A stretch of DNA of 63,829 bases, counting the filler, from Hausera hauseri (lineage: Eukaryota): the NCBI GenBank assembly GCA_046269625.1. It is 12 parts of 12 records of this genome, joined end to end, with 100 filler letters (N's around TTAATTAATTAA, not from the genome) between each part and the next. Parts side by side here need not be neighbours in the genome. Positions count along the whole stretch, not along the records: positions 4,201 to 9,933 come from JBJURY010197636.1; 11 more parts are not named here. One strand, written 5' to 3'. Each line of letters begins with the position of its first letter. Positions within the stretch are counted from its first letter, which is position 1. Of the stretch, positions 1 through 60,700 are shown one piece after another. The position numbers and the translations under genes were made by a program. The notes beneath the pieces are model-generated. The model searched no databases. It was not told where the DNA came from and saw only the letters and a program-made list of their open reading frames with translations.

Positions 1-172
1 CTGCATTGATATGAGCTTGTCTTCCTTCTGCAGAAAGGACAGGTTTGGCTCTTGGATAGCCATTTATCCGCGCATTTCACGCACATAATATGCGTACATC
101 GTAGTAACGCATAGTTCCTTCCGAGTAGTCCGCAACATATTTCGCATCTCAATGGTGCATACGGATTGTCAT
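1..172 (-). CDS. RING-HC (C3HC4) finger exon, partial; not in the ORF track
   Basis: Manual translation: DNPYAPLRCEICCGLLGRNYALLRCTHIMCVKCADKWLSKSQTCPFCRRKTSSYQC, preceded by a TTCAG acceptor (AG at 174-173). Confidence 0.85.
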
Positions 173-564
173 CTGAATTTCAAATTTATATAACAATTTT
201 ACCTTAAAATTATTGCTCATTTTATCAATATGGTGTCCTCACTCGGGGCACCAGTTTATATGTTGGTGGTACAGGGGTTGTTATTATCAACCTTAAATAA
301 TACCTAACATATAAATTCATATTTTTCATTTATTGTCCTCTCGTTGTCTTCACTGGATTCGAGCTCCTTTAATCTTGAATATTATTCCAACAAATTCGGA
401 CTAGATCTATATCTTTTCTCAAAGTAGGCCATCCTTCGATGTTTAACTATAACATTGCCATCAGTCCCAATAATCTGAAAGATTGCGAGTTCTTCTCTGT
501 TTCGTAACTCTATTTCTGTTTTTTCCTCTCGCATTTCGTTTTTCGCCTCAGAACTCCGTTTGTG

Positions 565-4200: not shown

Positions 4201-7200
4201 TTCACTCGACGAAATCACTTCATCCAACACCATTTTCAATTCGACCATCTTACACCAAATACCACTTGACTGCACATCACAAAACAATTCACAAATCGCA
4301 TCCATTACTACCCAAGCTGCTTCACCATCATCACAGAATCTATCACAGTTGCCTAAAACTTTACAGCAATTCGTTACCACATCATGTACACGCGTACTTG
4401 AAAAAGGTCGTTCGTTTACCCCTACAACCAGCACTGTACATCACATAGTTACACAGCATCAACGACCAATACGTCAAAAGGTACGACCACTGTCACCTCG
4501 TTGTAGACAGGCTGTAGAAACCGAATTTCTTGAACTAGAACGCTCCGGAATTGTACGCCGTTCCAAATTTCCTTGGTCGTCACCTTTACACGTGGTACAA
4601 AAAAGGATGGTACTTTTAGACCATGCGGTGACTACCGATAGTTAAACAACTTGACCATCATGAATGCCTACCCGTTAGCACTCATCAAGGACATCCTGCA
4701 TTACCTTAATTCAACTATTATTTATTCGACCATCGATTTGGCCAAAGCATACCACCAAATACCGGTGGCACCCGAATACATAAAAAAACTGCTGTTACTA
4801 CTCCTTTTGGGCTCTACGAGTACCTGTTTATGCCATTCTGTTTGTGAAATGACACCCAGACTTTCCACTGACATATCGATTCAATTCTCTCAAATTTCCC
4901 GTTTGCGCCCCTTTACATTGATGATATTCTGATCGTTTTGTCTTCGGTCAAACAACACGAGGAACACGTTTGCGCAATATTCCAAGGCCTCCACCACCAT
5001 TATCTCTTAGTCAGTTTCGACAAATGCCATTTTTCAAAAAACATCAAGTTTTTAGGCCACGCTACTTCACCATACGGCCACTATCCTTAACCAGACCGAG
5101 TTGAAGCCCTTAAAAATATCCAGTTACCACGTACGACCATCGAAATGCGCAGCTTCCTTGGTACACTACACTTTATACATAAATATGTATTATATTGCTC
5201 CGAATTGGCAGCACCATTTGCACACTTAAGCGGTGGCAAAAAATATCAGACAATCCATTGGACACCTGAGTTGGTAGACAAATTTGATAAGTTACGCGAA
5301 GGAATTAAGACCGTGGACATTTTCGCTTTCCCCAAGCCTGATGCAGAACTCATCCTTACTACAGACGCTTCAACCACTACGGTAGGTGTTGTACTCCACC
5401 AGACCTACAAAGGAGAAAATCAACCGCTACAATTTTTCTCTCGCAAAATAACATCCCCTGAAACCAGATATTCGACGTTTGATCGACAGTTATTGGCCAT
5501 CGTTCTTGCTTTAAAGCATTTCTCCCACCTATTTGTCGCTAGCAATTTAATACACAAACCGATCACAAACCCTTACTTAACATCATAGCTATGAAACATC
5601 CTTCCACACGCCAAGAACTACAGATATCATACTTGTCGACATTTAACCTCGACATAAAATATATTAATGGGGTTAATAATTTAGTTGCCAATTTTTTATC
5701 TAGGTCGGTTAGTTCGATTAATTTTTCACCGATTTTTACGCAAGCTTAACTTCAACAGAACCAGCCACCTCAAGACATACTTAATTCTTTTAAGTCTTGC
5801 ACAATTGTTGGCGGCGCGGATTTAGACACTTCCAAACCAGGTCATTCCGTAATAATTCACGCACCATCATTGAAAAGGCAAGCATTTAATAGCGTACATT
5901 TGCTACACCACCCTGATCCTAAGCGACTTTTCGTTTACTCCATCGACAAGTAATTTGGCCGTCAATGCGTTCTGATGTGCCGGCATGGGTTAAAGAGTGT
6001 GTGGTTTGCCAAAAATACAAAACAACTAAGCATTTAAAGCCACTACTGTTCCACTTCCCCTTCACATCGCGTTTTGAATCCGTGCATATCGACATCGTTG
6101 GTTGTCTTCCTCCAGACAACGGTCATCAGTTCATTCTCACCAAGATGGACCGTTCCTCGCGATGGACAGAAGCCATCCCTCTGTGGAGCACGAACACCGA
6201 TACCATAGCTGACGTTTTCATTCGCACATAGATTAACAGATTTGGATCACCTTGCTTCATCATCACGGACCAGGGTCCACAGTTTGAATCCAACCTGTTC
6301 AAATCCCTTGTTAACCGATTGGGGATCTATCTCATACATATTACGCCTTACCATCCCCAATCGAATGGCCTCCTAGAACGCTTCCACCAAAAATTAAAAA
6401 CGTCACTAAGAATCCTTTCAGAGTCCAACACTAGTTGGACAAATCTTCTTCCGTTTGTTCTGCTTGGCTGGCGGAACAATCCGTCTACTTCCACGAGATG
6501 CTCACCTACTAAAGCCTTATTCGGAGCTCCTGTATGATAATTGTTCGAACTAACCGCCCTAGACGACACTGCTACAGATAAACCGATACGGGCGGCACAA
6601 AGTCACTTTGTTGCGGTCAGCAAATACTCGTTCTGCAGGTTATTCCATAAAGACAAAATATATTTACCGAATATTTGTATTCGGCAAAATTTGTATGGCT
6701 AAAGTATCAAACGCCGTGCTGTTTCCGACCGCGGTATCTGGGGCCCTATAAACTATTACAGCTGCATTCACATAATGTTATTATCTCTAAAGATGGCAAA
6801 GAACTTACAGCACAAATTACCAACTTAAAGCCCATCTTCTTTGTCGACGACACTTCACCAATCGAAACGTCAACCTCTTTTCTCAATCCTGCATTCCTTG
6901 CTGTTCCTTTATCTGTTCCAACACCAGTTTCACCTCCTCTTTCGGCTTCTGATTCTGTTTCGTTATTCTCCACACCTTCTACATCCATTCCTATCTCTCT
7001 TCATTTCTCTACCACTCCTTCAGCCTCACTTTTTACTTCTACTCCTTTGTCTAACATAATTCCGATTTCTACTTTAATTTTCGTCTCTCCTCCTTAATCC
7101 GCTACTTCACCTTTTGTCACTCCTTTATCTTCTAGCCTTCTCTCGAACACCTTCAACCATCCATCTTAAACAATCACTCTTCATCCTTTACCTTTTTCTT

Positions 7201-7570
7201 CTCTTTATTCAGACTCGTCTTTGCACGACACAACACTCACAACAAAATCTGACTATTTCTTCCCCAAATTCAAACTTTGCAAACAAACACACAGCATAGA
7301 GACAAAACTCGCAGTCACATTTAGCAAGTATAGCAGGGAAAAATCAGTAGAAGGTACCCAACGTTTTGTTTACACTAAGACCAAATGACACAGACACTTT
7401 TCGTTTAGCGATTTTTTATTCCCGTCTGTTATGCTCTTTATAGTTTTTATTTTGCCACGGGTGGTGATGTGGTGCCCACGTCGGCCGGTGCCCTTTGGCC
7501 CACTTGGTCGGGCGCGGCCGGGCGTCTGTAGCCACTGCGTCGGGCCCATAGTCGAGCCCTATCTTTCGCA
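4201..7570 (+). mobile_element. Ty3/Gypsy (CsRn1-like) copy 1, subfamily A: RT-RNaseH-integrase, PPT and short LTR-like segment; degenerate
   Basis: PWSSPLHVV, DLAKAYHQIP, YIDD, TDAS, YSTFDRQLLA, HIDIVG and YHPQSNG motifs; S/P/T-rich IN tail; GGGTGGTGA followed by TGTGG at 7468. Confidence 0.95.
7468..7570 (+). repeat. 103-nt GC-rich LTR/U3-like segment after the PPT
   Basis: Starts with TG immediately after the PPT; homologous to 17686-17788(-) and 10607-10709(-); homology ends at the same position in all three. Confidence 0.85.
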
Positions 7571-7934
7571 TCGAAAATTTCTGATTTTTGCTCAAAATAC
7601 CTTTTCTATTATTAATAATTACTAGAAATGTTTTCAAGACGATTTTACCAGTTAACAAAAACTGAGGTGTCCTTAGATAGTCGTTTTGGTACAATGCCAG
7701 CATTGATGGAAAAGGAAGATTACGTATATCAGACAAATCATCCAAACCAACTGTGCAGCAAATGGCAGAATACGCTTCACAATTGATTTTAAAAATTGAA
7801 TTTCTCAGCCATATTACGTTTTGTCAAAAATCTTGCTATTCAGTTACAATCGAACGTTTCTAGCTTCAATTTCGATTTTATTTGTCAAGTACAAGGATGT
7901 GTCAGATTCTAACGGTTTGAATTTGTAATTATCA
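7571..7934 (+). pseudogene. Unidentified host-like 5'UTR plus N-terminal coding fragment
   Basis: AT-rich leader, then ATG at 7628 (MFSRRF...), continuing after a frameshift as SFWYNASIDGKGRLRISDKSSKPTVQQMAEYASQL. Confidence 0.35.
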
Positions 7935-9400
7935 TTACCCAACATACGTCGTTATTTTTGCGAGGATATCACAGTCTGTTTTCCTACTACATCGTTCCTT
8001 AATTCTTATAATTTCTTCTTCAATCACGTTCGTTTTAGTTTCTTTGGAAATGGCTGAGTTATAATTTATAAAAATATCTTTCAGAGCCGGTTTCTTATAA
8101 AAGTTAAGCTCGTGGGTCCCGTTTTTGTTAATTGTAATGGTGAAATCTAGCAGACTTAATGAGTTTTCTTGGGTTGGGTGTTCTATTTCAAATTTGATAT
8201 TGTTATGTAAGGCATTCATATCTGAATATATTTTATTTGATTCTTCTTTACTTTTACACAATATGAATATGTCATCAACGTATCGTTTGTAAAGAATAAT
8301 GTTATTATTCAAAATTATTTTACTTTCGATATAGTCCATGAAGAGGATGGCTAATGTTCCTGATAAACAGCTACCCATTGGCAATCCAGAGACTTGTTTA
8401 AATATTTCGTTGTTAAATGTAAAATACGTTGTGTTGATGACAGATTCCAAGAGTTTTCTTATATCTTCTACCTTTATACCGTGATAATTAAAGTTCTTAT
8501 TACTTAGTCTTTGGCAAATATTTAGTACTGCATCTTGAGAGGGAATTGAGGTGTATAGAGCAACAACATCCAAACTAAATGGGTAATTGTTATTTCTTAG
8601 TGTTTCTTTCCCTAGATTCCTGATTGATTTTATTAATTCCATACTACTTTCTAAGTGAGCAGGGCAATCTTTAAGGAGCGGTTTAAGTAGGAATTGGAGA
8701 AACCAGGAGATTTTAGTGTTAGGTGAATTTATATTTGATACTATTGGGCGCACTTTAATTTCATTTCCTATCTTGTGGGTTTTAATGAGGCTGTAAAATC
8801 TAGCGATATTAGAGTTGTGGGTGGTAAACGATTTTTGAATCGGTTTGGAGAGTTTGGCGGACTTACATATATCGACCCATGTTCTATTGATTTTGGACTC
8901 TAAGGTAGAAGGTTGAATTTTTCTAACTACTTGATAAACAGAGTTGTCGCTTAGGTGTTTTCTGGTAGCCTCATTATACTTATTTTCGTTAATAACGCAA
9001 AATTCTTTACCCTTGTCGCTTGGTAGGAAAACTAGATCTTTTTTTCTTAAGTATTTTTAAGATTTGGAGTTCTTCTTTACTTATATTATATTTAGTGGAT
9101 TTAGGGATTTCATCATTGATTTTAGAATAAATTCTTTTTAACCTATATCCAATTCCTTATTAGCATTTTGAATATGAGACAGTTTTTATAGGGCTATCTT
9201 ATAAATGGTTGATCGACTTTATTTAATTTAGTGAGGTTATCGTTCCATAATATTTGGTAAGCAAGACGGCAAAAGTTAGTAGTAATATTATTAAGCGTCT
9301 TAGTGTTAATTGGTTTTTGAAGAACAGAGTTTCAAATTTTCAACTGTTTTATAATTTCAACTGTTGAGTAGTAGATATTTTTGGCAATCTTAACACATTC
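7935..9400 (-). mobile_element. Penelope-like element RT, 3'-truncated (no GIY-YIG endonuclease seen)
   Basis: LPSDKGKEF, FYSLIKTHK, RPIVS, SLDVVALYTSIP, GLPMGSCLS, RYVDD and LSLLD motifs in a long frame from about 9050 to 7935. Confidence 0.92.
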
Positions 9401-10033: not shown

Positions 10034-10541
10034 ACTTAATCTTCTTGATGTTGGCCGGATTCCCCAACTAATCAGTCAGGTTCCAACAGCCATATCATCT
10101 GGAAGACAAGTCCGTTACAACTGACATTAAATTTTTCGTAGCATTTTCCATGAGCTGATATTCTTTGGCAACGAGACCAATCGGTTACTGCTGAGGAAAA
10201 GATTTCCAACGTTCAAATTTACAAACCAATGGATGAATTGTTGTTAAATGATTAAAGCTTAAATCCGGTATTTCCAAAAAGATAAAATTACTAATGTTTA
10301 ACGGAAGGCAAAGGAGCATATTATGAGAACAAATAAATATTTCCAAAGAACTCACTTCCGTAATAATATCCGGAATTGTTGTCAGATGATTTTCACTGAT
10401 ATCCATAGAATTTACATCATTAATGGGTAAGGCCAAATTATTTTAGATATTTTAATTCCAGTTTTACGAAAATAAATTTCCCACTTTGCTGGGTTTTGGA
10501 AATTGCTGATAGTAGATTTTTATTCATATTCCATCATCCAT
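10034..10541 (-). pseudogene. Leucine-rich repeat protein N-terminal fragment (LRRC40-like)
   Basis: LxxLxLxxNxL repeats (MDISENHLTTIP, ICSHNMLLCLP, DLSFNHLTTIH). N-terminus MNKNLLSAISKTQQSGKF starts at ATG 10527; frameshifted. Confidence 0.7.
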
Positions 10542-10606
10542 TTTCAACAGGAAAAAATTGTGTTTCGGTATTTGAAGTACAAAAAAATTTCAGATTAGAT
10601 TCTTAG

Positions 10607-10709
10607 AACAAAGAGTCGGATCCGACTATTGATCCGACGCGGTGATAACGGAAGCCTGGCCGTGCCCAAGCAAATGGGCCAAAGGGCACCGGCCGCTATG
10701 GGCACCACA
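10607..10709 (-). repeat. 103-nt LTR/U3-like segment with no preceding PPT
   Basis: TGTGGTGCCCATAGCGGCCGGTGCCCTTTGGCCCA... aligns with 7468-7570. Confidence 0.85.
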
Positions 10710-10712
10710 CAT

Positions 10713-11580
10713 TGTACTGTAGAATATGCTACAGAATTGCATTCGCTAACGGTAGAGGTTGCCGCAAAGCCAACACCTCTATGCTGTTGCATTTTAGTTG
10801 AAAGGGCATCTATGATACAGACCATAATTGGTAGTGCAGCGGTACAAGAAGTCATCCAGTCGACATCTCCTAAATTCACTCCCACTCGACAATGGCTTTA
10901 TTGTCATGTTCTTGAAATCCTCCACAACTCGAATATAACAATGTTGCAGAACACAGCAGCTGACTGTAGTTTGTGTAGCCAACATTGTGATACAATGTTC
11001 ACAAGTAAATCTCGACAGAAAGTGTCAAAGCTAGACCACTTTATTTTCGGTACCTGTGCAATTGGCCATATAAATTTCAAAAACTCCTACATTTTGGAAA
11101 TCGAAAGTGGACCCAAAAAACTTTTCGCGACTGATACGGATAACATTGAAAAATCGCACCTTAATCGACAATTTCTATTTTGTACTCAAGACACACAAAA
11201 AAGGAAATCAGCATTCGCCGTTAAGACTGATAGAACTATGAATCTAGAGAGTGGCTTCGAAGCCTATCATGATCTTATTTGCAAAATAATCAAACGTGTT
11301 AGTAAGAAAATTATTCCCCAAAGACTTAATGTTATCGATAATACTTTCGACACTACTCGAAATAACATGTCTAGGTTTTGAACTCTTAGTCGAAAACCCT
11401 TTTCGTATTCTGGAACTCTTGACATTAAAGGACATTTTTAAGTGACTGTACTGTTCCTAACAAACTCTTTTTATCATTACAAGATCCACCAGAAAAGGTC
11501 ATTCCCGTCTGCACATTAAAAAATATATCACATCTAATTGAACGTCCCCTACTTTGGGTTAGGGATCTATGTCAGGGTCC
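10713..11580 (+). pseudogene. UBA1: Ubiquitin-activating enzyme E1 internal fragment, degenerate, no introns evident
   Basis: IGSAAVQEVIQSTSPKFTPTRQWLY, G-x-x-AIG, TDTDNIEKSHLNRQFLF and SGTLDIKG, then (frameshifted) QDPPEKVIPVCTLKN...WVRD, which includes the catalytic-Cys motif. Confidence 0.9.
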
Positions 11581-11690
11581 AATTATATACCCGTCACGTC
11601 GTACGCCCGCTGTTTGCCCCATGGCCGTGGGTCGCGCGGCGCGCAGTGCGTTGGTTACCGCATCGCGCCCATGGCTCCAGCCAGCCCACT

Positions 11691-11918
11691 TTTTCCATTT
11701 TCATTTTTACATACAACATACACATCCACACACATACCGCAAATCATGATACCTTAGGAAAAGAGCTACATACTTCAATCTTACACTCCACCGACAAGTC
11801 TGACTTTGCCTTGTTTTTCAATAGCTTCATCATCCGTACACATGATTGTCTGTGTAGCTTTCTTTTGCATCCTTTTTTATCCATTTGTGTCACGCTTCAG
11901 CCTAAACTTTATGGTGGT
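11691..11918 (+). CDS. Ubiquitin-like domain at the Gag N-terminus (copy 2)
   Basis: FSIFIFTYNIHIHTHTANHDTLGKELHTSILHSTDKSDFALFFNSFIIRTHDCLCSFLLHPFLSICVTLQPKLYGG, 76 aa, in frame with the Gag CVDFF..WL segment. Confidence 0.75.
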
Positions 11919-16089: not shown

Positions 16090-16873
16090 CACGAATGTTG
16101 GAATCGATGCTATTCGTGAGAATTTGCAGTTTTCTATCAGGGCGTGTCACATGCGAAACTAGCGGTGTACACTTTGATAATTCGGACAAGGATTGCTTCC
16201 TGGATCCGGAAAATAAAGACTACTCGTCGGCATTGACAAAGTAATCCACATTGGATGATAATGTTTCAGTTTCATTAAGTCTTGGATAGACGTTTGTCAC
16301 CGGCGCCGCAGTTGGAACGTTGTCATTCGACTGGAATGTGAGTTCATCGAGTTCTTCATAAATATTTGATATATCAAGATTTAGTAACGTTCCCATCACC
16401 CGATCTCGCTCGGAGACTGTAGAATAAATACCACCTTCCAAATCGTTAATTCTCGATTCCCGAGAAACTCGCAAAGAATCAATGTGCAGTTGTAAAATTT
16501 TTGATTGGATTATACCCGTTCGATATTCAAAAATATTTGAGTTCATTTCCTGATCGGATGCGGCGGCAAATTTCAATTCCGAGACTGATTCAATTAATGG
16601 TTTCAAATGAAACACCCATATTGGTGGTTGAGAACGATTTTTAACCATTTTGACCTGCTGATTTGCACTTAAGATTCAAACGAAACTCGGTTTTGAAGAT
16701 GTATTACTTGTATAAATATAAAGATTACCATTGGAAATGATTGCATAGTACTTGATCCTATGTTTAAATGAAAGCCAATTAATTTCCCGTTCCAAATAAC
16801 CGGAATATGTTACACTTCGATCTTGTAATAAAATTTGAACTGGTAATTTGCAAAAAACACTATTTTTCGCCAT
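16090..16873 (-). pseudogene. SH3BP2-like PH-domain protein, 5' part, with two in-frame stops
   Basis: ORFs 16676-16873 and 16220-16648 share one frame: LPVQILLQDRSVTYSGYL...YAIISNGNLYIYTSNTSSKP...FAAASDQEM, matching the 3BP2-type PH pattern. Confidence 0.7.
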
Positions 16874-17465
16874 GTTACTGCAGCAATCAAAATAATCTTA
16901 AAAGCAAAACTAACACTTTTGAAACTCCACCAAAAAAGACCTTTATTTAAACAAAAAATTTTACATCAAAAATTGTTTTGCATGGCAATCATCGATTGGG
17001 TAAATGTGGGCACCACAACAACCTTCAATTGAGGACAAATCTTTTTTTGATTCTTCCTTTCAACTTTTTGCAAATTTGCAGTCTCCTTCACATCTTCAGC
17101 TTTCTTCAAACACGCATTCTTCAAATTCTGCTTCATTTCATATCTTTCCTCATATATTTCCACGATTGAGCCCTCCCCAAATCCTCAATCGTTCACATCA
17201 CCTCTTCTTTCATCTTCAACCTTCACTAACTATCCTTAGCAACCTTCACTTTCATCAAACAAAATAATACCCACGATAAAATCCGACATTTTTTCCTGGG
17301 GTGATGCGGCGCCCTCTTGCTGTGTTGCCGCGCAACCAAATCGACATTTGCCCGATATCAAATGTNNNNNNNNNNNNNNNNNNNNNNNNNNNNNNNNNNN
17401 NNNNNNNNNTTAATTAATTAANNNNNNNNNNNNNNNNNNNNNNNNNNNNNNNNNNNNNNNNNNNN

Positions 17466-17675
17466 AGAACAAAACAACTGCGGCGGTGGTATATTAATCC
17501 GATCTAATTCGTTTTTATTCGAAATTGGACTTTTACTCTTAGGACTCTGACATTTACCTGAACTAACTGTATGCTGTATAGAACTGACGTTATGGATTCG
17601 ATTTGGTATTTTATAATCACTCATGGAAGGACAATGTTGGGTACGATCATTTATAGTACGTGTTTTTCTTGACAT
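17466..17675 (-). CDS. Unidentified host-like ORF fragment directly after the LTR-like segment
   Basis: ATG at 17675 (MSRKTRTINDRTQHCPSMSDYKIPNR...), open to the contig end. Confidence 0.35.
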
Positions 17676-17685
17676 ACGATTTAGA

Positions 17686-20600
17686 GGCGGAAGCTCGGGC
17701 TCTGCCATGGGCCAGACGAGACTGCAACGGACGCCCGGCCGCGCCTGACCAAAGAGGCCAAAGGACACTGACCGCCGTGGAAACCACATCACCCCCCCCC
17801 CTTGAAAAAGGGAAGACTATAAAGATCAAAATAGATGGAAAGAAGAAATCGCTAAACGAAAAGTGTCTGTATCAGTTGGTCTTAGTGTGATCAAGACGTT
17901 ATGTGACTTCTACTGATTTTTCACTGCTATACTTGCTAAATGGGACTGCGTGTTCTATCTTTATGCGGTGTGTTTGTTTGCAGAGGTTGAAGTTGGGGAA
18001 AAAATTGTCAGACTTTGTTGCGAGTGCCGTGTCGTGCAAAGAAGAGTCAGAACGAAGGGAGGAAGAGGGTGAAGGAGGGAGAGAGATTGTTGGAGACGGA
18101 TGGTTAAAGGTATTCAATAGAATGTTAGAAGACGAAGGAGTGACGAAAGGTGAAGTAGCGGATAAAGGAGGCGAGACGAAAATTGAAATAAAAATTGGAA
18201 TTGTGTTATGAGAAAGAATAGAAGTAGAAAGTGAGGCTGAAGGAGTGGTAGAGAAAGGAAGAGAGCGAGGAATGGAAGTAGAAGGTGTGGAGAATGATGA
18301 AACAGAATTAGAAGCAGAAAGAGGAGGTGAAACTGGTATATAATACAGATAAAGGAACAGCAGGGAGTGCAGGATTGAAAAAAGAGGTAGACGTGTCGAT
18401 TTGTGAAGTGTGGTCGACAAGGAAGGCGGGCTTTAAGTTGGTAATATGTACTGTAAGTTCTTTGCCGTCTTTATAGATAATAGCATTATGTGAAGGCAGC
18501 TGTATCAGTTTACAGGGCCTCAGATACCGCGGCTGAAAACCGCACGGTGTTCGATTTTTTAGCCGTACGAATTTTGCCAAATACAAGTCTTTGGGTAAAT
18601 ATGTTTTGTCTTTGTCAAGTATCCTGCAGAACAAATCTTTGGTAACCGTAACGAAGTGATTTTGTGCCGCCCGCATCGTTTCATCTGTAGGAGTGTCGTC
18701 TAGGGAAGTTAGTTAGAACAATGATCGTACAGGAGCTCCAAATAAGGCGTCAGTAGGTGAGCATCTCGTAGAAGTAGATGGAGTATTTTGCCAGCCAAGC
18801 AGAACAAACGGAAGAAGATTCGTCCAACTAGTGTTGGACTCTGCAAGGATTCTTAGTGACATTTTCAATGTTCTGTAGAAAAGATGTAGAAGGCCATTTG
18901 ATTGAGGATGATAAGATGTAGTTTGCACGTGATGGATCCCCAATCGGTTAACAAGGGATTTGAACAGGTTGGATTCAAACTGTGGACCCTGATCCTTGAT
19001 GATTAAGCGAGGTGATCCAAACCTGCTAATCCATGTGCGAATGAAAACGTCAGCTATGGTATCAGTGTTCGTGCTCCGCAGAGGGATGGCTTCTGGCCAT
19101 CGCAAGGAACGGTCCATCATGGTTAGGAAAAATTGATGACCGTTGTCTGGAGGAAGAGGGCCAACGATGTCTATATGCACGGATTCTAAACGCGATGTGC
19201 AGGAAAAGTGGAACAATGGTGGCTTTAAATGCTTAGTTGTTTTGTATTTTTGGCAAGTCACACACTCCTTAACCCATGCCTGCACATCAGAACGCATTGA
19301 TGGCCACATTACTTGTCGATGGAATAAACGAAAGGTGGTTTTAGCACCAGGGTGGTGTAGCGAATGTATGCTATTAAATGCTTGCCTTTGCAATGATGGT
19401 GCGAAAATTATTATAGAATGACCTGGTTTCGAAGTATCTAAAGCCACGCCGTGAACGATTTTGCAAGACTTAAAAGAATTAAGAATGTCTTGAGGTGACT
19501 GGTTCTGTTGAAGTTGAGCTTGCGTAAAAATCAGTGAAAAATTAATAGAACTAACCGACCTAGACAAAACATCGGCAACTAAATTATTAACCCAATTAAT
19601 ATGTTTTTTGTCGAAGTTAAATGTCGACAAGTATAATATCTGTCGCTCTTGACATGTGGAAGGATGTTTCGAAGCCATGATGTTATGTAAGGGTTTGTGA
19701 TCGGTTTGTATAGTAAAATGGCGAGCAACAACTAGGTAGGAGAAATGCTTTAAAACAAGAACGATGGCCAATAACTCTCGATCGAACGTTGAATACTTGG
19801 TTTCAGGCATGTTAGATTGTGAGAAAAAAATTCTAGCGGTTGATTTTCTCCTTTGTAAATTTGGTGGAGTACAGCACTTACCGCAGTAATTGAAGCGTCT
19901 GTAGTAAGAATGAGTTCTGCATCAGGCTTGGGAAAAGCGAGAATGTCGATGGTCTTGATTCCTTCGCTTAATTTATCAAATTTGTCTACCAACTCAGGTG
20001 TCCACTGGATGGGCTGATGTTTTTTGCCACCGCTTAAGTGTGCAAATGGTGCTGTCAATTCCGAGCTATATGGTACATATTTATGTACAAAGTGTAGTGT
20101 ACCAAGGAAGCTGAGCATTTCGATGGTCGTGCATGGTAACTGAACATGTTTAAGGGCTTCAACTCGGTCTGGTTGAGGAGAGTGGCCGTTTGGTGAAATA
20201 ATGTTTCTTTTTTTATGCTTTTTTTCAAGAAATGGCATTTGTCGAAATTGACTTTGAGATTATGGTGGTTAAGGCGTTGGAATATTGCGCGAAGGTGTTC
20301 CTCGTGTTGTTTGGCCGAAGACGAAACGATCAGAATATCATCAGTGTAAGAGTGCGCAAACGGGAAATTTGAGAGAATCGAATCAATATGTCGCTGAAAG
20401 GTCTGTGCAGCGTTTTGCAAACTGAAAGGCATAAACAAGTACTCGTAGAGACCAAAAGGAGTAGTGACAGCAGTTTTTCTATATCTTCGGGTGTCACCGG
20501 TATTTGGTGGTATGCTTTGGCCAAATCAATGGTCGAATAGATGGTAGTTGAATTAAGGCAATGCAAGATATCCTTGATGAGCGGTAGGAGGTAGGCATCT

Positions 20601-22990
20601 ATGATGGTCAAGTTGTTCAACTGTCGGTAGTCACCGCATGGTCTAAAAGTACCGTCCTTTTTAGTACAACATGTAAAGGTAACGACCAAGGAGATTTGGG
20701 ACGGCATACAATGCCGGAGCGTTCTAGTTCGAGGAATTCGGCTTATGCGGCCTGTCTACGACGAGGTCACAGTGGTCGCACCTTCTGACGTATTTGTCGT
20801 TGATGCTGTGTAATTATGCGATGTACACTGCTGTTTTTAGAGGTAAACGATCAATATTTTTTAAGTACGCGTGGACATGATATGGTAACAAATTGCTGTA
20901 AAATTGTAGGCAACTGTGATAGATTTGGTGATGATGGCGAAACAGTTTGAGTAGTAGCGGATGCGATTTGCGAATTGTTTTGTGATGTGCAGTCAAGTTG
21001 TATTTGGTGTAAGATGGTCGAATTGAAAATGGTGTTGGATGAAGTGATTTCGTCAAGTAAATAAACACTGGTGGTAGTACCACAATTATCGACACTAAAC
21101 CTCGATCGAATATCGATATTATTATTTAAAAATTTACGAATAGAATTATTGTTATGGAAATTCGAATTACTTATTGATTTTCCCAAAACTGACCTCCGTG
21201 TCTCGATTGATTGCACGGTAATCGAAATGCTATTGTCATGCTCAGAAATGCTGCCAGTGATGCCGCTCCTCAGACATCGTTAACTGCATTCAACCAATAA
21301 ATTATAATGTTATAAAAAATTGGACCTTAGAATTGTCGTCTGGACGTTAGCAACTGTTAACGTTCAGTGGAAAGGTGAAGGGAATTTTGGTAAGATGAAA
21401 GATAATTTAGCCGTGCCAGAAATGTGCAGCGGTTGACCTGAAGCGGTGTATAAGGGTTTAATTTTGAATGGTGAATTTTGTACAGGGAAAGATTGTGGTA
21501 ATAAGGAAATAGCTGCACCTGTATCAATGAGGAAGTCAACAGATTGCGTTGTAGGAGCGATGATTGTAGCCTTTAGAGTAAAGACAGCAAAAGAGGCGTG
21601 TCGGCATTCAGAAAGAAAAGCAGTGCCTTTGCCAGAGTTTGCCCTGACTTCTGGAGGCAAATTTAGTTTTTTTAAAAAGGCTAACTAGGACGACTATTAG
21701 AAGAAAAGATAGTACGTCCGTCGTTCGTGTCTGGTTTGAAAGTGCAGCCTGGAATGCATTTACGGGCTTGATTTTTAAACTTTGCGTGGTAAATGCAAAC
21801 AACATTATCTGAAGAAAAACTTGTTATAAAATTTGCACCATAGGCAGCATTTCTTGGCATTCTTATTGAATCTGCTATGATAATAGCAGATTGACGACCG
21901 TGCAGGCAATGGTGACCGGTTTCTAGATGCAGAATGGGCGCGGTCATCAACAAAATCCCTTCCCCTGGACAAGGAAACTCGTTCAATTTGTTGTTTATAT
22001 TGTTAATGGTTGCGTGTAGTGTAATATTTTCAGCACGTAGCTGATGGATTTGTTGTTGTATTGATATGTTATTGGTTTAAATATCGTTAGGGAAAACTGC
22101 CGCCGAAACGAATGGTGGGGAATTTAAGTGTATAACATCATGTGTTTTATCGGCTAATTCGGCCAGTTTTTCAAAAGCCGTGGAGTCTTCCACCACGGTA
22201 TGTAAGGCCCGGATTTGGATGGGTAACGCGTTAAGAAAGTAATGACGCAGTATTTCTGGGTTGTGTTCTTTAGTAACGCCGAGAGTGTGCAGATGTGCCA
22301 AAGACGTGCGTAAAAATTCTGATGGACGTTGTGTGCCTATAGCATTGTTGCGGATGAAGCGTTGTAGGATCGTGTCCACTGAGAGTTCTGTGATTTTAAG
22401 AACAGCGTTGTAGAGTTGTGAGTATAAGTCAGAATGTTCAAATATTTCAAGTATGTTGTGAATTCGTATTTTAGTGTTGTTAGGGAGTAAGAAGAGGAGA
22501 ATGTGTGCCTTGGTTAAAGGATCGATGATATTGTTTGCCTGTAACCAGAGTTGATGGAATTGCAACCAAGTTTTGCTGGAGCCTTGGTTGTCAATGAAAA
22601 ATTCGGTGCAATTAGGGAAAGGAGCGGAAAAGGTTGTAGGTGAAGTATTTTTGGTGGAAGCAGGAGTGGGTTTTTGAAGTAGTATGACTGATTTTGGTTT
22701 CGTCGTGATTTTATCCGTGGTGTCTATGGTGGGTGGTGAATTCATGCCACCGCAAATGGGAAGTGTATGTGGAGGTGAATGTAAGTTGAAAAAGGTTGCA
22801 CAGTCTAAACGGGAGGCACCGCGGAGCCGTGGTGTGTGAGGTAAAAGTCAGATGAGCGAAGAAAAGTAGAGATAATGTAGTAAATAGCCGCAGTGTTTAA
22901 GTGTGGGAATGTATTTGTGTAAATATGTTTATAATTTAAAAAAAAAAGAGGAAATACGGAGAGGTCGTGTAGCCGGGTGCGTGTCGTGGG
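17686..22990 (-). mobile_element. Ty3/Gypsy copy 3, subfamily A, near full length: UBL remnant-gag-pol-PPT-103-nt LTR-like segment
   Basis: gag 22745 to about 21665, FLIDTGA protease, RT, RH, IN 18713-19810; G10TGA PPT at 17789-17801; TGTGG at 17788. Confidence 0.95.
22746..22950 (-). pseudogene. Degenerate ubiquitin-like domain upstream of gag (copy 3)
   Basis: SSDFYLTHHGSAVPPV*TVQPFSTYIHLHIH-(1-nt shift)-PICGG, immediately followed by the gag Met at 22745. Confidence 0.75.
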
Positions 22991-24443: not shown

Positions 24444-24512
24444 TGTAGTGCCTAGAATGTGGCTGCACTGTTTGAGGCTGTCGAATCGGTGAAAGATTTT
24501 CCCCGCCATGTG
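24444..24512 (+). repeat. 69-nt 5' LTR/U3-like segment of subfamily C, inserted in the Chapaev3 transposase
   Basis: TGTAGTGCCTAGAATGTGGCTGCACTG...TTTCCCCGCCATGTG is about 70% identical (hand alignment) to 29498-29566; homology ends at CATGTG in both. Confidence 0.85.
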
Positions 24513-24835
24513 TTGATGTGTTTCGTTGTGATGTTGTTGGACAAACTTGGAAAGAATGAAAGAAACAAGCGACAAATAACAAGTTAATGTATTAGCTAGA
24601 GAATATTTCCGAAAGATTTAATAAATATGTGACTTGAAAATCGATATAAAGACGATTTTATAAATGGCTGCCAGAATATTGATACAATTTAGCTACTGTC
24701 TAAACTTGTATCCTATCGACAAACACTGAGGATGAGATCAAGTACAATTAGATCAAATCAATCAACTGATAAATGCAATTCTATTTCAAGGCAATCAGAA
24801 TGATATTTACTCTTCTGCGCAGTAAACAAGGTTTG

Positions 24836-27800: not shown

Positions 27801-29572
27801 GACTTTGTTTCGTGGTCGGTTAACTCAATTACAGTTCAGCCAATTTTCTCCTGTGAGGTGCTAAAACGCAATCAGCCATCAACGGATATTCTTCAAGCTT
27901 TTAAATCTGTTGAAATAACTGCCGATATCACCTATGACACTTCCAACTCGACCAACAAGAAAATTAATCTTGCTGCATAATTTCAAAAGACAGCTTTCAC
28001 TCATTTTCATTCTCTTCATCATCCGGGTTCAAAAGCTACATTTCGTCTACTGCAACGCCACGTTATATGGACAACTATGCGTACCGATGTACAGAACTGG
28101 GTCAAGGGATGTGTAGCATGTCAGTAATATAAAATCCACAATCCATCAAACCACCACTTTACCACTACCCTTGCACTTCTCATTTTGAATCCGTGCATTT
28201 GGATCTTGTGGGTCCTCTACCTTCCGACAATGGTTATCAATATATTTTATTCATGATGGATTGTGCTTCCTGCTGGCCTAAAGCCGTTCCGCTTCGATCA
28301 ACCAACACCGACTCAGTAGCAGATGCATTTATCAAGACATGGGTCAGCCGTTTTGGCTCACCACGTTACATCATAACGAACCAGGGTCCGCAATTTGAAA
28401 CTGATCTCTTTAAATCTCTGGTAAAACATTTGGGGATAGCCCATTTCAGTACAACGCCGTACCATCCACAAGCGAATGGTCTTCTTGACAGATTTCACGG
28501 TACCATGAAGATCTCCTTAAAAATCTTGGCAAACAACAATCATAATTGGACCTTAGTTCTTCCTCTTTTCCTACTCGGTTGGCGCAACACGCCATCCACC
28601 ACCACAGGTTGTGCAGCAGTTGATGCTTTTTTGGGACACCAGCTCGTGCACTATTTGAACTCTCCAATCTCGATGTAAGTCCGTCAGATGAAGTTATTCG
28701 TGCGATACAGTCCCACTTTGCTGATGTCAAATCACATGACTTCTGCCGTCTTATAAACAAAGACAAATCTTACATCCCAGAAGACTTATACTCAGCCAAG
28801 TTTGTATGACTGAAAGATATATTACCTTCTGGTTTTCGGCCCCAATACGTTGGCCCTTACAAATTACTGAACTTTTCTTCGCACACCGCTACTATTCTAC
28901 GCAAGGAAAAACCTCAAAACGTACACATTTCTAATCTTAAGCCAGCCTTCTTCGTTGACAATGACCAGGATAATAGCATTGTCTCAAATCCCAACTTTAA
29001 CTTCTCTACCCTCGAGCTATCATCTAATTTCCTTGATGATTTTAATCCTTCGCAGCATTCAGTCTCGCGTAACAATCAGTTCTCTTCACTTCCGTCATCA
29101 TCCATTGCTCCTTCAACATAGGCCTCTCCGTCATCGTTTGCACATCCACTACTTATTTCACCTTCATCGCACGATTCGTTGCCATCTACAGTCTCGCCTT
29201 CTGCGCGTGATCCTTTTACCTTTTCAATTTTTTCTCTACTCTTTCTTCTTCATGAATCATCCTTTAAAAACACCACAAAATCTACAGTATCTCTCCCTCA
29301 AACAACTCTACAAGCACCAGTAACATCTAACAGATCACGTCATGTGAGGTTTAATACTTACAGCAGGGAGAAGTTCATAGACGGAGTCCAACGTCTAACA
29401 CGTATCAAAACCAAATAGTTACAAGCTCTATTTTTCTTACTATAATTTCCATTTATTTTTCTCTTAATAGTCCTCATCTTGCCACTGCGGGGGGTGATGT
29501 AGTGCTTAAATCGTGGTCGCACTGGAGGGATTAGCGGACCGGTGAGAGGACTTTCCCCATCATGTGACTACA
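24836..29572 (+). mobile_element. Ty3/Gypsy copy 4, subfamily C: 5'-truncated gag, pol, PPT and LTR-like segment
   Basis: Gag homology begins at LPYVELSLDKNNSSKPWLQF; two CHCC motifs; FFIDSGA; YIDD; HLDLVG; GGGGGGTGA and TGTAGT at 29498. Confidence 0.95.
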
Positions 29573-29992: not shown

Positions 29993-30237
29993 CGTGAGCC
30001 TTTAATTGGGCCGTTTCAATAATTTCGTCCAACGTTTTCATAGCCTTAAATTTATGAAATAACTGTATGTATTCTGGATGTTCTTCAAACAATCTAAGCA
30101 AACATATACACAAGATTTTTACATTTTTTAAACCTTCTAAATACTTCTTGACCCAATCGAATTTTTTCTTCTTTAGTTTTCGTCAATGAAGACCATTCTT
30201 GCCAAAGACATTTTTTATGAAATTCAGTCAAGCTCAT
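29993..30237 (-). CDS. Globin gene, 5' part: exon 1 30237-30134, 40-nt intron 30133-30094, exon 2 from 30093 to the contig end; not in the ORF track
   Basis: Spliced translation MSLTEFHKKCLWQEWSSLTKTKEEKIRLGQEVFRRLFEEHPEYIQLFHKFKAMKTLDEIIETAQLKAH shows Pro C2, Phe CD1, His E7 and a GT-AG intron at the conserved B12.2 position. Confidence 0.92.
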
Positions 30238-34172: not shown

Positions 34173-37100
34173 CTGCAAACTGCCATGAACAGCCAGAGGG
34201 AAACTCGGCCACCCTGCATTTTCGGGCCCTCCCCGCCGGGGCGGAAGTCCCAACCGTCAACCCTGCCCCGGTCGGTCGGACGGAGCCTTTCGCGTTGACC
34301 CCACACCACACCCCCAGGCTCATTACTCCCCACTCTATTTCCCTTTTTATAAATAACACACATTTATACAATCACTACATCACATCTACACATTCCAACC
34401 CTTCGTACCTTCATTTCTCTTCTACTCAGTTCTTCCGATTTTTACCTCACCCATAACGGCGCTATCATACCTCTCACCGGAACCCTATTATTTTTCTGAA
34501 GCCGCACTTAACGCCACATACATCTCCGTATCCGTGGTGGCATGAACTTTTCGCCAACCATTAACACCACGGATAAACCCACCACAAAACCAATACCCGT
34601 TATATTACTTCAAAAACCCACTTCTAACTCTGCCAGCAACTTCACAGTCATTACATCTTCAGCTCCTTTCCCTAACTGCACCGAGATTTTTATTGACAAC
34701 CAAGGCTCCAACAAAACCTGGTTGAAATTCCATCAGCTGTGGCTAAAGGCAAATAATATCACTGACTCCCTAACAAAGGCACATAATCTTTTCTTTCTCC
34801 CTAATAATATCAAAACCCGAATTCGCAACATCATCAAAATCTTTGAACTCCCTGACCCATATTTCCAACTTTCCAACGCAGTCCTTAAGATTAAACAACT
34901 TTCCATGGACACGATCATACAACGTTTCTTCCACGACAACGTTATAGGTATCCAACGGCCATCAGAATTCTTACGTATCTCCCTAGCACATCTACATACC
35001 CTCGACGTCACTAAAGAGCACAACCCAGAACTACTACGCCACTATTTCCTCAATGCGTTACCTATCCAAATCCGGGCCCTACTTACCGTGGTGGAGGACT
35101 CCACGCCGCTTGAGAAATTAGCCGAATTAGACGATAGGACACATGACGTTTTACACATAAACTCTCCACCAGTTGTTTCAGCAGCAGTTGCCACTAACAA
35201 TATTCAAACAAATAACACGTCTATAGAACAACAGTTTAATCATCTACGTGCTGAAAATATTGCATTGCATGCAACAATCAACAATATCAATAATAAATTA
35301 AACGAATTGTCTCTGTCACGCCGAGGGGGCTTTGTCACTGACCGCGCTCGTTCTGCGTCTGGAAACCGCTCACCATCGCCTGCGCGGTTTTCAATCTGCT
35401 ATTACCACAGCAGATTCAACACTAATGCCCAGAAGTGCTGCTTAGGGTGCAAATTTTACAACAAGGAATTTTCCTCGGACACTGTTGTTTGCATCTACCA
35501 TGCAAGGTTCAAAAACCAAACTCATAAATGTATTCCAGACTGCACTTTGAAATCAAACACGAATGACGGACGTACTGTCTTTCCTTCTAATAGTCGTCCT
35601 AGTTCGCCCTTTCAAAAAAACTAAGTTGGCCGCCAGCAGTCACGGAAAACTCTGGGAATGGCACAACTTCACATTCTGAACGCCGACACGTCTTTTTTGC
35701 TGTCTTTACTCTAAAGGCTGCAATCACTGCTCCTACAACGCAATCTGTTGACTTCCTCATCGATACAGGTGCGGCGATTTCTTTATTACCACAAACCTTT
35801 CCTGTACAAAATTCCCCATTCAAAATCAAACACTTATACACTGCTTCAGGCCAACCGCTGAACATTTCAGGCATGGCTAAATTATCTTTCACTTTACCAA
35901 ATTTTCCTACACCTTTCCATTGGACGTTCACAGTCGCTAATGTCCAGACGGCAATTCTAGGATCCGACTTTCTCTCACACTATAATTTACTGGTTGACTG
36001 CAGTCAGCGATGTTTGAAGAACAGTACCACTGGCAACGTTTCTGGACATGTCAATAGCATTTCGACTACCGCGCAGTCGACCGGAATGCGGAGGTCTATC
36101 TTAAAAAGTCAATAAATAAATCCAATTTCCATAATAATAATTCTATTTCTAAATTTTTAAATAGTAATATTGATATGCGATCGAGGTTCGATGTCGATAA
36201 TTTAGGTACTGCCACCAACGTTAATTCATTTGACAAAAATACTTCATCCAACATCATTTTCAATTCGACCATCTTACATCAAATACCACTTGACTGAACA
36301 TCACCTAACAACTCACAAATTGCATCCGCAACTACTTAACCCGTTTTACCACTTCCACCAAATCTTTTACAGTTACCTACAACTTTACAGCAATTCGTCA
36401 ATACATCATGCCCACGCGTACTTAAAAAAGACCGTACTTTTACTCCCGCAAACAGTACTTTACACCACAGTTATACAACATCAACGTCCAATACGCCAAA
36501 AGGTACGGCCCCTGTCATCTCGTAGTAGACAGGCCGTAGACGCCGACAACGTTCCGGCATAGTGCGCCGTTCCAAATCGTCTTGGTTATCACCGTTACAC
36601 GTAGTACAAAAAAGGACGGTACTTTTAGACCATGCGGTGACTACCGACAGCTGAACAACTTAACTAGCATGGATGCGTACCCTTTACTATTCATCAAGGA
36701 TATTTTGCATCGCCTTAATTCAACCACCATCTATTCGACCATTGATTTAGCTAAAGCATACCATCAAATATAGGTAGCACCCGAAGACATAAAAAAACTT
36801 CAGTAACTATACCTTTTGGCCTCTATGAATACCTGTTTATGCCATTCGGTTTACGGAATGCCGCACAAACTTTTCAGCGGCACATTGATTCAATTCTTGC
36901 AGACTTCCCGTTTGCACACCCGTATATCCATGATATTCTAGTCGATCCATCTTCGGCCAAACAACACGAGGAACACCTTCGCGCAATATTCCAACGTCTT
37001 AACCACCATAATCTTCAAGCCAGTTTCGACAAATTCTATTTTTTCAAAAATCGCATTAACTTTTTAGGCCACGTTATTACACCAGACGGTCATTCTCCCC

Positions 37101-41314: not shown

Positions 41315-41558
41315 TATTTATATTTGTTACTGATCTATGTAATGACGTAAATGATTTGTAAATTTAATTTGCTAATTTGTGTATTGACGTCAATTTGACG
41401 ACCGTTGAACCTGATCTTTGTAAATGACGTCAATGCGACGATTTTTTATATTCGATTTTCAAAATCAAAGGCCAACTACAAAGTTTAATTAAAGGTCGAT
41501 GACTGTATCAAAATATATTCCAAAATGTACTAAACTATGATCTTTGTAAATGACGTCA
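41315..41558 (-). promoter_or_regulatory. TATA box with clustered CRE/ATF motifs
   Basis: TATAAATA(-) at 41315-41322; TGACGTAA at 41343; TGACGTCA at 41385, 41425 and 41551. Confidence 0.55.
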
Positions 41559-41663
41559 ATGCAACGATTTTTTATATTCGATTTTCAAAATCAAAGGCCA
41601 GCTACAAAGTTTAATTAAAGGTCGATGACTGTATCAAAATATATTCCAAAATGTACTAAACTA
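41412..41663. repeat. 126-bp direct tandem duplication
   Basis: TGATCTTTGTAAATGACGTCAATGC... starts at 41412 and again at 41538. Confidence 0.9.
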
Positions 41664-43917: not shown

Positions 43918-44670
43918 GGACCATGATGTCATAGTGGAATTTGTACATCAAGGACTTTGACAGGTCCAGTATTGCCATACCCACATATATGGGCTTGTTA
44001 AATTGCAAGGATGTTTTCAGCATATTTATGCTGACCAAGTTCTCAACATTTATGATGCTGCCGTGGAAATTGGGCTTGGCAATGAGCTTCTTTGCCCGCT
44101 TACACTCAAAGACTAGTTCGATGTTGATCCTGTTGCGGATATCCTCCATGGTTTTGCCGAATACGCTGTTGTTGTAAAGCTTGAATTGGTCATTGTCAAA
44201 GTCGTTCTTGGCTTTTGTTCGCAGTTTTGTATTGAGGTATATGTATGGCTCCAGCCAGTTGGACTGCCTGAACTGTAGGGCCCGATGGATCTTAGTGATG
44301 CAGAGTCCATTTCTTACCGTTTGCTGGAGATTCATGTAGTGGACTACATAACTCTCCCTACTATTTAGATGGCAGAGCAGCTTTCTGTGCTTTCCATAGG
44401 GCGAAGGCTTGCTTTCAGGGAGAAAGGCAGCTGTTGATGCCTGACATGGATAGAAGCCGGATATTCCATATCCACCTCCAGTATATAGCCCGTATCTCCA
44501 GTGGGATGTAGGTCCAATATAGGGATGTTTTCAGGATTGTCGACTCACTTGAAGTTATCATATGGCAATGGGATGCTGATTGCCAATCCATACAAGTTGT
44601 TGGCATCCAAGAATGATATACATGACGATTCCTTTGTTGAGTCGCATTTGGCTATATTGTTAGGGTTTGT
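43918..44670 (-). mobile_element. Protein-primed PolB fragment (Polinton/Maverick-type), paralogous to about 58700-59450
   Basis: DANNLYG, KLYNNSVFGKTMED and KPIYVGMAILDLSK motifs; clear nucleotide similarity to the plus-strand PolB in contig 11. Confidence 0.9.
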
Positions 44671-47296: not shown

Positions 47297-48701
47297 TCAT
47301 TCGAAGGAGCTAATTATTGGATCACGTATCAGAATGTCATTGATCGTCACGTTTCGATAATTGTGGGTTTCCGGGTGGATATCTGGTCGTCGCATCAGGA
47401 TGGAGACTGCTCCATATGTTCGGGTTAAAAGCGCAGTTATCAAGGGAGTCTCCTCATATTAGCCACATGCATACTTGACGTCGAATAGGTATATTCCATT
47501 GTCAAATTTTTTTATTCAGAAAGGTTTCCAATAAGAGAAATCGTTTAAACACTATTGCGTGGTGTAATGGGGTACTGCGTAATTGTGGTTGAAAAATAGC
47601 TTGAAATGTTTTGTTGTCGTAGGCATAATCGAATATTAGTGTTTGAAGGTTATGTCGACCATGGCGTATAGGCAGTAGTAAGGGAATGTCTCCATCTACA
47701 TTGGATATGTGCAAGGGCGCTTGTGATTGAATAAGCATGAGTGTAAAGAAATCATGACACTCGCTCATGATGGCTAAATGAATGGTGGTGTTTCCATTTG
47801 TATCTTAAAACTTTAGTGTTTCAACTGCTTCATCATCTAATTGAGTTATAGCTTCTCTGGCTCTTTCTTCGTTGCCTGATGCTGCTGCTAACATTAATAC
47901 GGTTGTCCCAGCATTGCTTACTATTGTATAGTCTATTGGATTTGCTGGTTTATCAGTGCATCCTAACATATAGCGTTTTTCCTTTGGTAGAGTTTGTTCT
48001 TTGTTGATTTCTACATAAGGGTAGTATTCGTCTTCCTGGATGATTAATAGCCTTTTCTCATCGCCGTAGATTTCAAAATCATATTCCAGACTGGTTAAGA
48101 GGATTTCGAATGGTATGTTATCAAATGTTGTTATAAGAGGGGTTGTATCTCTTTTCTCGCGTTTATGTTTATATACGCATATAGCGAGGATTACTGCTAT
48201 GATAAGTATTACGCCGATGGGTGCTACTATTAATATTAGCAGGAATATATTATAATCTATTTGGAGTTGTTTTATTGGTTCAACTGATTGTGATATGATG
48301 ATCAGTGTTTCATTGTCTTTAGGAGGATTAGTAGATTTTCTAAAAATGAATTTCCATTCTTTCATTATCTAGTCGATAGTTGGAAATCTAAATAATGAAT
48401 TTACTCGATTTTTGAGTGTATTGACCTCTAGTAATGCAACTGTCTTTTGTTTTCGTAACGGGTCATAGTAAGGTAATTGGATATGGACTAGATAAGGATA
48501 ACCTGATATTAACTGAGTACACTCAACGTAGGTGCTGGTGATTAGAAAGCAAGCATCAATGGCGTTTTCTAATGTGACAATAAAATCGGGATTAGGTAAG
48601 CTGAACATTACACGATCGGATCTCACTTGAAGATAAATATCCAATGGTCTGAATAGAATTATTTTGATTTGTTCCGGAGTTTGTCTTAATCCTGTTATTA
48701 G
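47297..48701 (-). pseudogene. Single-pass membrane protein with cytoplasmic ankyrin repeats (Notch-like), intronless, degenerate
   Basis: Three track ORFs share one frame. TM IFLLILIVAPIGVILIIAVILAICVY-KHKREKR; ANK motifs GTTVLMLAAASG, DTNGNTTIHLAI, DGDIPLLL, STPLHHAI and (shifted) EETPLITA. Confidence 0.75.
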
Positions 48702-59300: not shown

Positions 59301-59616
59301 TAGCACCACCATATATATTGAGAACTTGGTAGGCATCCATATGCTGAAAACATCATTCGTATTCAACAAGCCCATATGTGTGGGTATGGCAATATTGGAT
59401 CTATCAATGACCTTGATGTACAGATTCCATTACGATATAATGGTCCCCAAGTTCAAGTCCATGCAACTGATGTATATGGATACTGATAGTTTCATCTATC
59501 AGATCCATAAAGGGGACATTTATGACGACTTTGTCCAATTGGTTCAACACATGGATACCTCGGACTATCCAAAGGATCATTTCAACTATTCAATTGCCAA
59601 TAAGAAAGTCCTTGGG
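56380..59616 (+). mobile_element. Polinton/Maverick/adintovirus-type protein-primed DNA polymerase B with an endonuclease VII-like domain, degenerate
   Basis: KSGWT, CFMYAIL, CYLC..KVRDYCHLTG.YRGAAYNNC (EndoVII), FHNLSGYDSHF, RKGVFPYDY, YLDANNLYGWAM, FGKTMEN and YMDTDS motifs. Confidence 0.92.
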
Positions 59617-60685: not shown

Positions 60686-60700
60686 AAGCATGTTTCAAAT

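Follow-up and report, generated by a model that had tools for sequence, protein, structure and literature searches.

A GC-rich segment found before three gene-like frames in Hausera hauseri is probably a short LTR of a CsRn1-like Ty3/Gypsy retrotransposon

In the genome of Hausera hauseri, the same GC-rich segment is found at three loci, and each time a different gene-like frame begins on the same strand shortly after it. This raises the question of why a repeat should stop at the same point, just before a start codon, at unrelated sites. A sequence-only reading offered two answers: ultra-short LTRs whose integration is targeted just upstream of genes, or a U3 segment that was joined to the 5' ends of mRNAs during reverse transcription. 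We analysed the window, that is, the whole stretch of 63,829 nt, which consists of 12 contigs (4.0–7.3 kb each) joined by N44-TTAATTAATTAA-N44 linkers. The coordinates of the features are given in Table 1.

Table 1. Positions of repeat copies, elements and gene relics along the window
Feature	Position	Strand	Remarks
LTR copy A	7468..7576	+	109 nt, TGT...AAA; likely the 3' LTR of contig 2's decayed Gypsy element
LTR copy B	17680..17788	-	109 nt, TGT...AAA; likely 3' LTR
LTR copy C	10602..10709	-	108 nt, TGT...AAG; no polypurine tract before it; likely a solo LTR
Polypurine-tract-like GGGTGGTGA	7459..7467	+	immediately 5' of A
Polypurine tract	17789..17800	-	G run, then TGA; immediately 5' of B
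Element A, internal part	4201..7467	+	broken RT, RNase H and integrase with GPY motif
Element B, internal part	17801..22990	-	broken throughout: Gag (two CHCC motifs), PR, RT, RNase H, integrase
Segment D	11570..11697	+	GC-rich 5' end of a related element; TGT start at UBA1 break
Sister element G, 5' LTR copy	24444..24512	+	z 10-12 against 3' copy
Sister element G, 3' LTR (G3)	29498..29572	+	75 nt, TGTAGT...ACTACA, after GGGGGGTGA tract
Gag head	61589-61816	+	cleavable-ubiquitin-like look
Gag head	about 34340-34540	+	cleavable-ubiquitin-like look
Gag head	about 22760-22975	-	cleavable-ubiquitin-like look
Gag head	about 11690-11917	+	cleavable-ubiquitin-like look
Candidate target-site duplication, 5' copy AATG	10710..10713	-	3/4 match to 10598-10601
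Candidate target-site duplication, 3' copy AATC	10598..10601	-	
LRR gene relic	10089..10527	-	frameshifted, intronless; database match ~10200-10424
End of another high-depth repeat	10034..10088	-	TGT start, cuts LRR relic; depth 41,188; 49 contigs diverge at 10088
UBA1 (ubiquitin E1) relic	10812..11569	+	intronless, residues about 396-650; ends at TG of segment D
52-codon ATG frame after A	7628..7786	+	no homologue; 82-codon frame antisense
ATG frame after B	17466..17675	-	at least 70 codons, 4 nt after B, cut by contig end; no homologue
Penelope-like RT frame	7974..9050	-	stops at residue 607/805 of closest relative; short of A
Alpha-tubulin relic	60698-61117	+	residues 275-414
RING finger relic	3-179	-	
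Globin-like relic	29994-30101	-	
Ankyrin relic	47505-47804	-	

The similarity among the three copies is real. Over the 103 positions delimited by the sequence-only reading (7468–7570 for A on the + strand, 17788–17686 for B and 10709–10607 for C on the − strand), the copies align without gaps, with 78/103 identical positions for A and B, 76/103 for A and C and 65/103 for B and C, far above shuffled sequences (0/300). Their GC content is 59–69%. The copies lie on three different contigs, which agrees with the claim of three independent loci, and the polypurine tract reported before A and B is there as a G-rich tract ending in TGA, with none before C. A profile built from the three copies detected no fourth copy within the window. 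The shared stretch is longer than the 103 nt proposed, however, since A and B align to 7576 and 17680, six bases further, so that it measures about 109 nt; their identity is 7/10 in columns 101–110 and 3/10 in columns 111–120. AAA terminates both A and B at position 109 and AAG terminates C at position 108 (10602), and the sequences downstream of A, B or C do not realign with each other. Three truncations at one position had been called unlikely; the common stop stands, but it is likely the natural end of an LTR, which removes the puzzle.

Other readings of the segment found little support. There was no match to a known RNA family in Rfam at E up to 1 and no tRNA; the folding z-scores are −1.65, −0.82 and −3.01 for A, B and C, and a covariation term of +0.35 with two-sided changes in 3 of 34 pairs makes no case for a structured RNA. 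A spliced-leader remnant at the junction is unsupported by the copies themselves, because identity declines towards the 3' end of the segment. A pattern search for further copies in metagenome contigs gave no matches, searches for related loci confirmed 0/8, 0/38, 0/592, 0/48 and 0/2 pattern matches, and no RNA dataset was among the matches listed for public runs. One contig end (4075–4100, + strand) reads TGTGGTGCC..., with its first nine bases as in A and C and no purine tract before it; over this very short stretch, the comparison gives z 1.0.

Judging by the CHCC motif of Gag, A and B terminate decayed copies of a CsRn1-like Ty3/Gypsy element. The motif CX2HX9CX3C, which is the signature of the CsRn1 clade (PMC2582038), has eight matches in five element copies of the window, two of them in element B, and is doubled in three Gag copies. 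Elements A and B are 86% identical over 3388 columns; the 5' LTR of B is absent from its contig. Pfam domains follow the order RVT_1, RT_RNaseH, Integrase_H2C2 and rve along the copies, consistent with the Ty3/Gypsy Pol order PR-RT-RNase H-integrase, with GPY in the frame 6651–7097, and the integrase frames that we scanned gave no chromodomain in Pfam. LTRs of the clade are described as ending in TGT...AAA or TGT...ATA, with 4-bp duplications and a polypurine tract before the 3' LTR (PMC2582038). A and B have such ends (AAA), and a tract lies directly before A, B and G3, the 3' LTR of a sister element. For comparison, one of AAA, ATA or ACA is present at 8.9% of the non-mobile window positions. 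A scan for a tRNA-Trp primer site, in a window without any 5' LTR of the A/B family, gave none with fewer than two mismatches; the best candidate (11652, three mismatches in 12) is one of 25 such sites.

How long is the LTR? A pair of LTRs is present in the sister element G (contig 5), where the two copies correspond over 69/75 nt; G3 has perfect 6-nt inverted repeats at its ends and closes with ACA. No 4-bp duplication of G was found in the six registers tried, and no long ATG frame or gene start follows G3. After its 5' LTR, about 300 nt of A-rich sequence (24513–24830, + strand) replace the Gag head before Gag resumes; this stretch has no Pfam match and is possibly a captured or inserted piece. 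Segment D resembles A (z 5.0–5.8) and, more weakly, B and C (z 2.4–3.8). GC-rich stretches at the 5' ends of two sister copies (from 34173 upwards and from 22990 downwards) show no significant similarity to A or B (z 1.8 and 1.9). The 5' ends of elements A and B are either diverged or fall outside the contigs, and since the window thus lacks a 5' LTR of their family, the length rests on the 3' copies and one solo copy. Their sequences suggest that the shared segment is likely a complete LTR that begins with TGT and closes with AAA after about 109 nt. The LTR may instead stop at position 103, where A reads CA; most of the aligned public-run contigs have the letter C at positions 100 and 102.

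Read depth provides a further view of the termini. In the public run X1, the summed depth is 38,645 in the bin 10655–10723 (first half of C), compared to 43–99 over 10724–11620 and 93–261 over 10103–10585, where the depth of Logan contigs is not equivalent to copy number. This run contains 45% of the sampled words of contig 3, is possibly related to the DNA source of this window, and is not independent support. Outward from 10709/10710, 187 and 52 contigs carry unrelated sequence (agreement 0.38–0.39); the 5' TGT of C is clearly a terminus common to many loci. Within C, depth is about 12-fold greater in the first half than in the second. This step is explained by the divergence of C itself, because 32 contigs leave C at 10647 with letters still similar.

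Locus C is the only one of the three with both flanks, and gene relics lie on each side. C is likely a solo LTR, with weak support from a near-duplication: AATG and AATC bracket it in the register predicted by the AAA end, with a 3/4 match that has a 7.6% probability by chance. The imperfect duplication and the origin of the flanks from different genes (LRR and UBA1) speak against our preferred reading. Downstream, matches of the LRR relic to the PDB begin at about 10424, and there is no intron over about 146 codons. Of the two ATGs before this match, the one at 10541 opens 5 codons and the one at 10527 opens 29 codons; the latter frame has an LRR-like hydrophobic spacing by eye and may resemble LRCH proteins. 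The search for a parent gene gave one match among 25 candidates, a plant kinase at 29%. On the opposite flank, the UBA1 relic comes within about 100 nt of C in the middle of the gene. Its frame stays open for 34 codons ahead of the database match, up to the first base of C (chance 16%). Beyond C, a + strand frame (10424–10597) is open for 58 codons (open-run chance 6.6%) and is in the phase of UBA1 if 112 nt are discounted; it has no UBA1 match in Pfam, NCBIfam or the PDB and overlaps the LRR start in antisense. Two contig joints near C, which skip 75 and 82 nt, were left out since their short side has just 29 letters.

Are the frames after the LTRs gene starts, or are they expected by chance? 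The ATGs at 7628, 17675, 10541 and 10527 that had been pointed out are all present, and counted from the end of the 109-nt LTR they lie 51 nt (A), 4 nt (B) and 60–74 nt (C) away. This proximity holds but means little, because a same-strand ATG is found within 80 nt at 11,985 of the 14,943 sampled non-mobile window positions (80%; the sampled positions overlap and are not independent). Such an ATG opens at least 29 codons at 27%, at least 52 codons at 11% and at least 70 codons at 8% of the non-mobile positions. Frames of at least 52 codons at two of three flanks thus have a binomial probability of about 0.03, or about 0.09 if both ends of G are counted, where we found no frame comparable to those after A and B. 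At locus A, the antisense frame of 82 codons is longer than the best sense frame (60 codons), and the frame after B shares its phase with an ATG within the LTR (17708). Of the three host-like gene starts proposed, only that at C is recognisable (LRR), whereas the A and B flanks match no Pfam family (0/14 frames). The B frame has no homologue among six candidates, and its two matches among 1.84 billion representatives are long repeat proteins with summed weak stretches and are not credible. A codon-usage test had no power, as the true frame was best in one of seven leave-one-out trials. Taken together, the long frames plus one recognisable LRR start amount to a modest excess that was noticed after the fact and that chance does not fit comfortably.

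Gene remains are present elsewhere in the window as well, namely relics of alpha-tubulin, a RING finger, a globin-like protein and an ankyrin protein, and element ends cut relics in the middle of a frame (segment D in UBA1 and the repeat ending at 10088 in the LRR relic). These further relics and cuts raise the background. The broken 3' part of the element of contig 3 is adjoined by a host-like frame (16220–16873, − strand), which spans about 216 codons, includes one stop, has no Pfam match and may be PH-domain-like. Near A, the Penelope-like element (7974–9050, − strand) lacks the last 198 residues; a relative with 88% identity occurs in a public metagenome assembly (P0002). We rejected the idea that the A flank is the endonuclease tail of this element, as none of 113 relatives matches 7571–7930 at E 0.01. 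A candidate fourth case of an LTR followed by a gene (17285–17365, − strand) was also rejected, with z 2.0 against D, 16/300 shuffles and no match to A. On the + strand, the overlapping stretch 17296–17365 reads GGGGTGA and then TGCGG before it turns GC-rich at the end of the contig; it has no significant match to A–D and could be where a 3' LTR of a different family begins.

The window contains further mobile sequences. In contig 10 (51744–53775, − strand), broken frames that match the chuvirus/Monjiviricetes fusion glycoprotein family lie upstream of Gypsy-type protease and RT frames, which is an unusual place for an envelope-like gene. A protein-primed type B DNA polymerase is present in pieces, together with an endonuclease VII-like stretch, at 57716–59446 (+) and 43918–44657 (−); the second copy, on contig 9, is 81% identical and adjoins RT and RNase H frames. 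Tandem repeats occur at 565–758, 2620–2767, 41412–41663 and 56576–56647, with periods of 68, 71, 126 and 15/30.

On balance, we consider it probable that the segment is the whole LTR (about 109 nt) of an abundant CsRn1-like Ty3/Gypsy retrotransposon and that the flanks are ordinary insertion sites amid decayed gene copies. The direct observations behind this reading are the sequence, the termini, the polypurine tract, the Gag motif and the sharp 5' terminus in the reads. A and B would be the 3' LTRs of elements that were reverse-transcribed normally and inserted by integrase, in which case the similarity would end where the element ends. C would be a solo LTR that remained after the two LTRs of a single element had recombined, a process described in PMC7175516. 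The nearby ATGs may be due partly to chance in AT-rich DNA and partly to the dense retrocopy-like relics around the elements. The gene-like starts beside the LTRs are probably decayed neighbours and not captured mRNAs, and the link between the LTRs and gene starts is unproven and more likely incidental than mechanistic. The proposal of ultra-short LTRs is supported by the TGT...AAA ends, the polypurine tract at A and B, the sharp 5' terminus and the 75-nt sister LTRs. A fusion of bare U3 with the 5' ends of mRNAs is disfavoured, since the junction coincides with the AAA end, which is the LTR end of the clade.

A chimeric cDNA is an unlikely alternative that still has several observations on its side. 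Here, a co-packaged host mRNA would be reverse-transcribed as far as its 5' end, and the reverse transcriptase would then jump onto the end of the LTR of the element. The product, a whole LTR with or without internal part that is fused to the 5' end of an intronless gene copy, would be inserted as a unit. This would fit the co-oriented frames 4–74 nt past the LTR end at all three flanks, with their modest excess over chance, and the lack of introns over the LRR relic. It would also fit the unrelated genes on the two sides of C, where UBA1 is open to the TGT as if LTR and LRR had entered together, and locus A, where the LTR plus about 400 nt adjoins a Penelope-like element broken in the middle of a frame. 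LTR elements make retrocopies in animals, which likewise include intronless fragments that adjoin LTR-element sequence in sense orientation (Tan et al. 2016, PMC5131818). In the cases described there, however, the mRNA copy lies inside the element, where it takes the place of internal sequence flanked by the two LTRs, and the joints show short similarity, whereas at A and B the gene-like sequence lies outside the 3' LTR and at C neither a primer site nor internal sequence lies between LTR and gene. Furthermore, the junction coincides with the natural LTR end of the clade and not with a U3/R point inside the LTR, C is bracketed by a near-duplication, the sister end G3 lacks a gene start, the A and B flanks lack homologues and the candidate fourth case failed.

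It is doubtful that this CsRn1-like family fuses its whole 109-nt LTR end-on to the 5' ends of host mRNA copies, outside the frame of two LTRs. No LTR fused in this way to mRNA 5' ends was found in the titles and abstract openings searched, in a library with few subscription papers. If true, such a fusion would mean that retrocopies are born with an LTR promoter directly before the start codon, and it would account for the abundance of intronless gene relics near these elements as well. LTR elements would then have an added way to make promoter-equipped retrogenes.

We regard targeted integration as quite improbable. An integrase tethered to promoters, as in Tf1, would place the element just 5' of start codons in a fixed orientation, and the LTR may then act as a promoter. 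Co-oriented ATGs 4–74 nt away at 3/3 loci and an integrase with a GPY/F motif are consistent with this, as are two known systems: the Ty3/Gypsy elements Tf1 and Tf2 of fission yeast, whose LTRs lie close to start codons and cluster within 400 bp of them (PMC7175516), and tapeworms, where solo LTRs drive downstream genes (PMC4558846). However, the other flank of C is a mid-gene UBA1 relic and not promoter DNA, which speaks against the proposed targeting upstream of genes; the downstream genes are decayed, and the related elements D and G sit in mid-coding relics. Tf1 is described as targeting the promoters of intact genes in either orientation (PMC7175516), unlike the situation here, and the mosquito CsRn1-like elements are reported in PMC2582038 to have no target preference at the nucleotide level. 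The ta-TRIMs of Echinococcus share abundant short solo LTRs, 4-bp duplications and a location of some copies upstream of genes (PMC4558846), but they are non-autonomous and were shown to be transcribed into intact genes, whereas the elements described here have full gag-pol. Finally, it is very improbable that the segment is only a part (U3) of a longer LTR or a separate short mobile element and that the true repeat lies elsewhere, since the missing 5' LTR match in sister copies, the lack of a clear tRNA-Trp primer site and the depth step in run X1 are set against clade-typical termini at both ends, no realignment downstream of A, B and C and a depth step explained by the divergence of C.

Compared to its closest known relatives, the CsRn1 clade (CsRn1, PwRn1 and AgCR1-14; PMC2582038), the family shares the Gag motif CX2HX9CX3C, the order PR-RT-RH-IN, the GPY/F motif, the tract before the 3' LTR, the TGT...AAA ends and possibly the 4-bp duplication. 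It differs in the doubled CHCC motif of three copies and a ubiquitin-like start of Gag, and a clear tRNA-Trp primer site was not detected in the window. In four copies, Gag opens with a stretch of about 75 residues that ends in RIRGG, ICGG or LYGG and is located immediately after the GC-rich 5' segment. This head has a weak match in the PDB to the head of SDE2 including its RGG end (E 0.21), and a single-sequence fold was not confident (mean pLDDT 47). An ATG in the context CCCATGG lies inside LTR B (17708–17706, − strand), with a matching place in D (11670–11672, + strand) just 5' of the Gag head, and Gag may start inside the LTR. A Gypsy Gag with a ubiquitin head was not found in the titles and abstract openings of the same library. 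This head may be a more unusual feature of the family than its short LTRs.

The LTR of Mag is 77 bp long. Within the CsRn1-like elements, the pufferfish LTRs measure 174–302 bp (PMC11117352), in a study whose own filter may have excluded elements with short LTRs, and LTRs of 146–407 bp are listed for AgCR1-14 of mosquito and of 381 bp for PwRn1 (PMC2582038). At an LTR length of about 109 nt, or 75 nt for the sister element, the family described here would thus fall below the published 146–407 bp in the tables compared. Annotation tools that screen for long LTRs may miss elements with such short LTRs.
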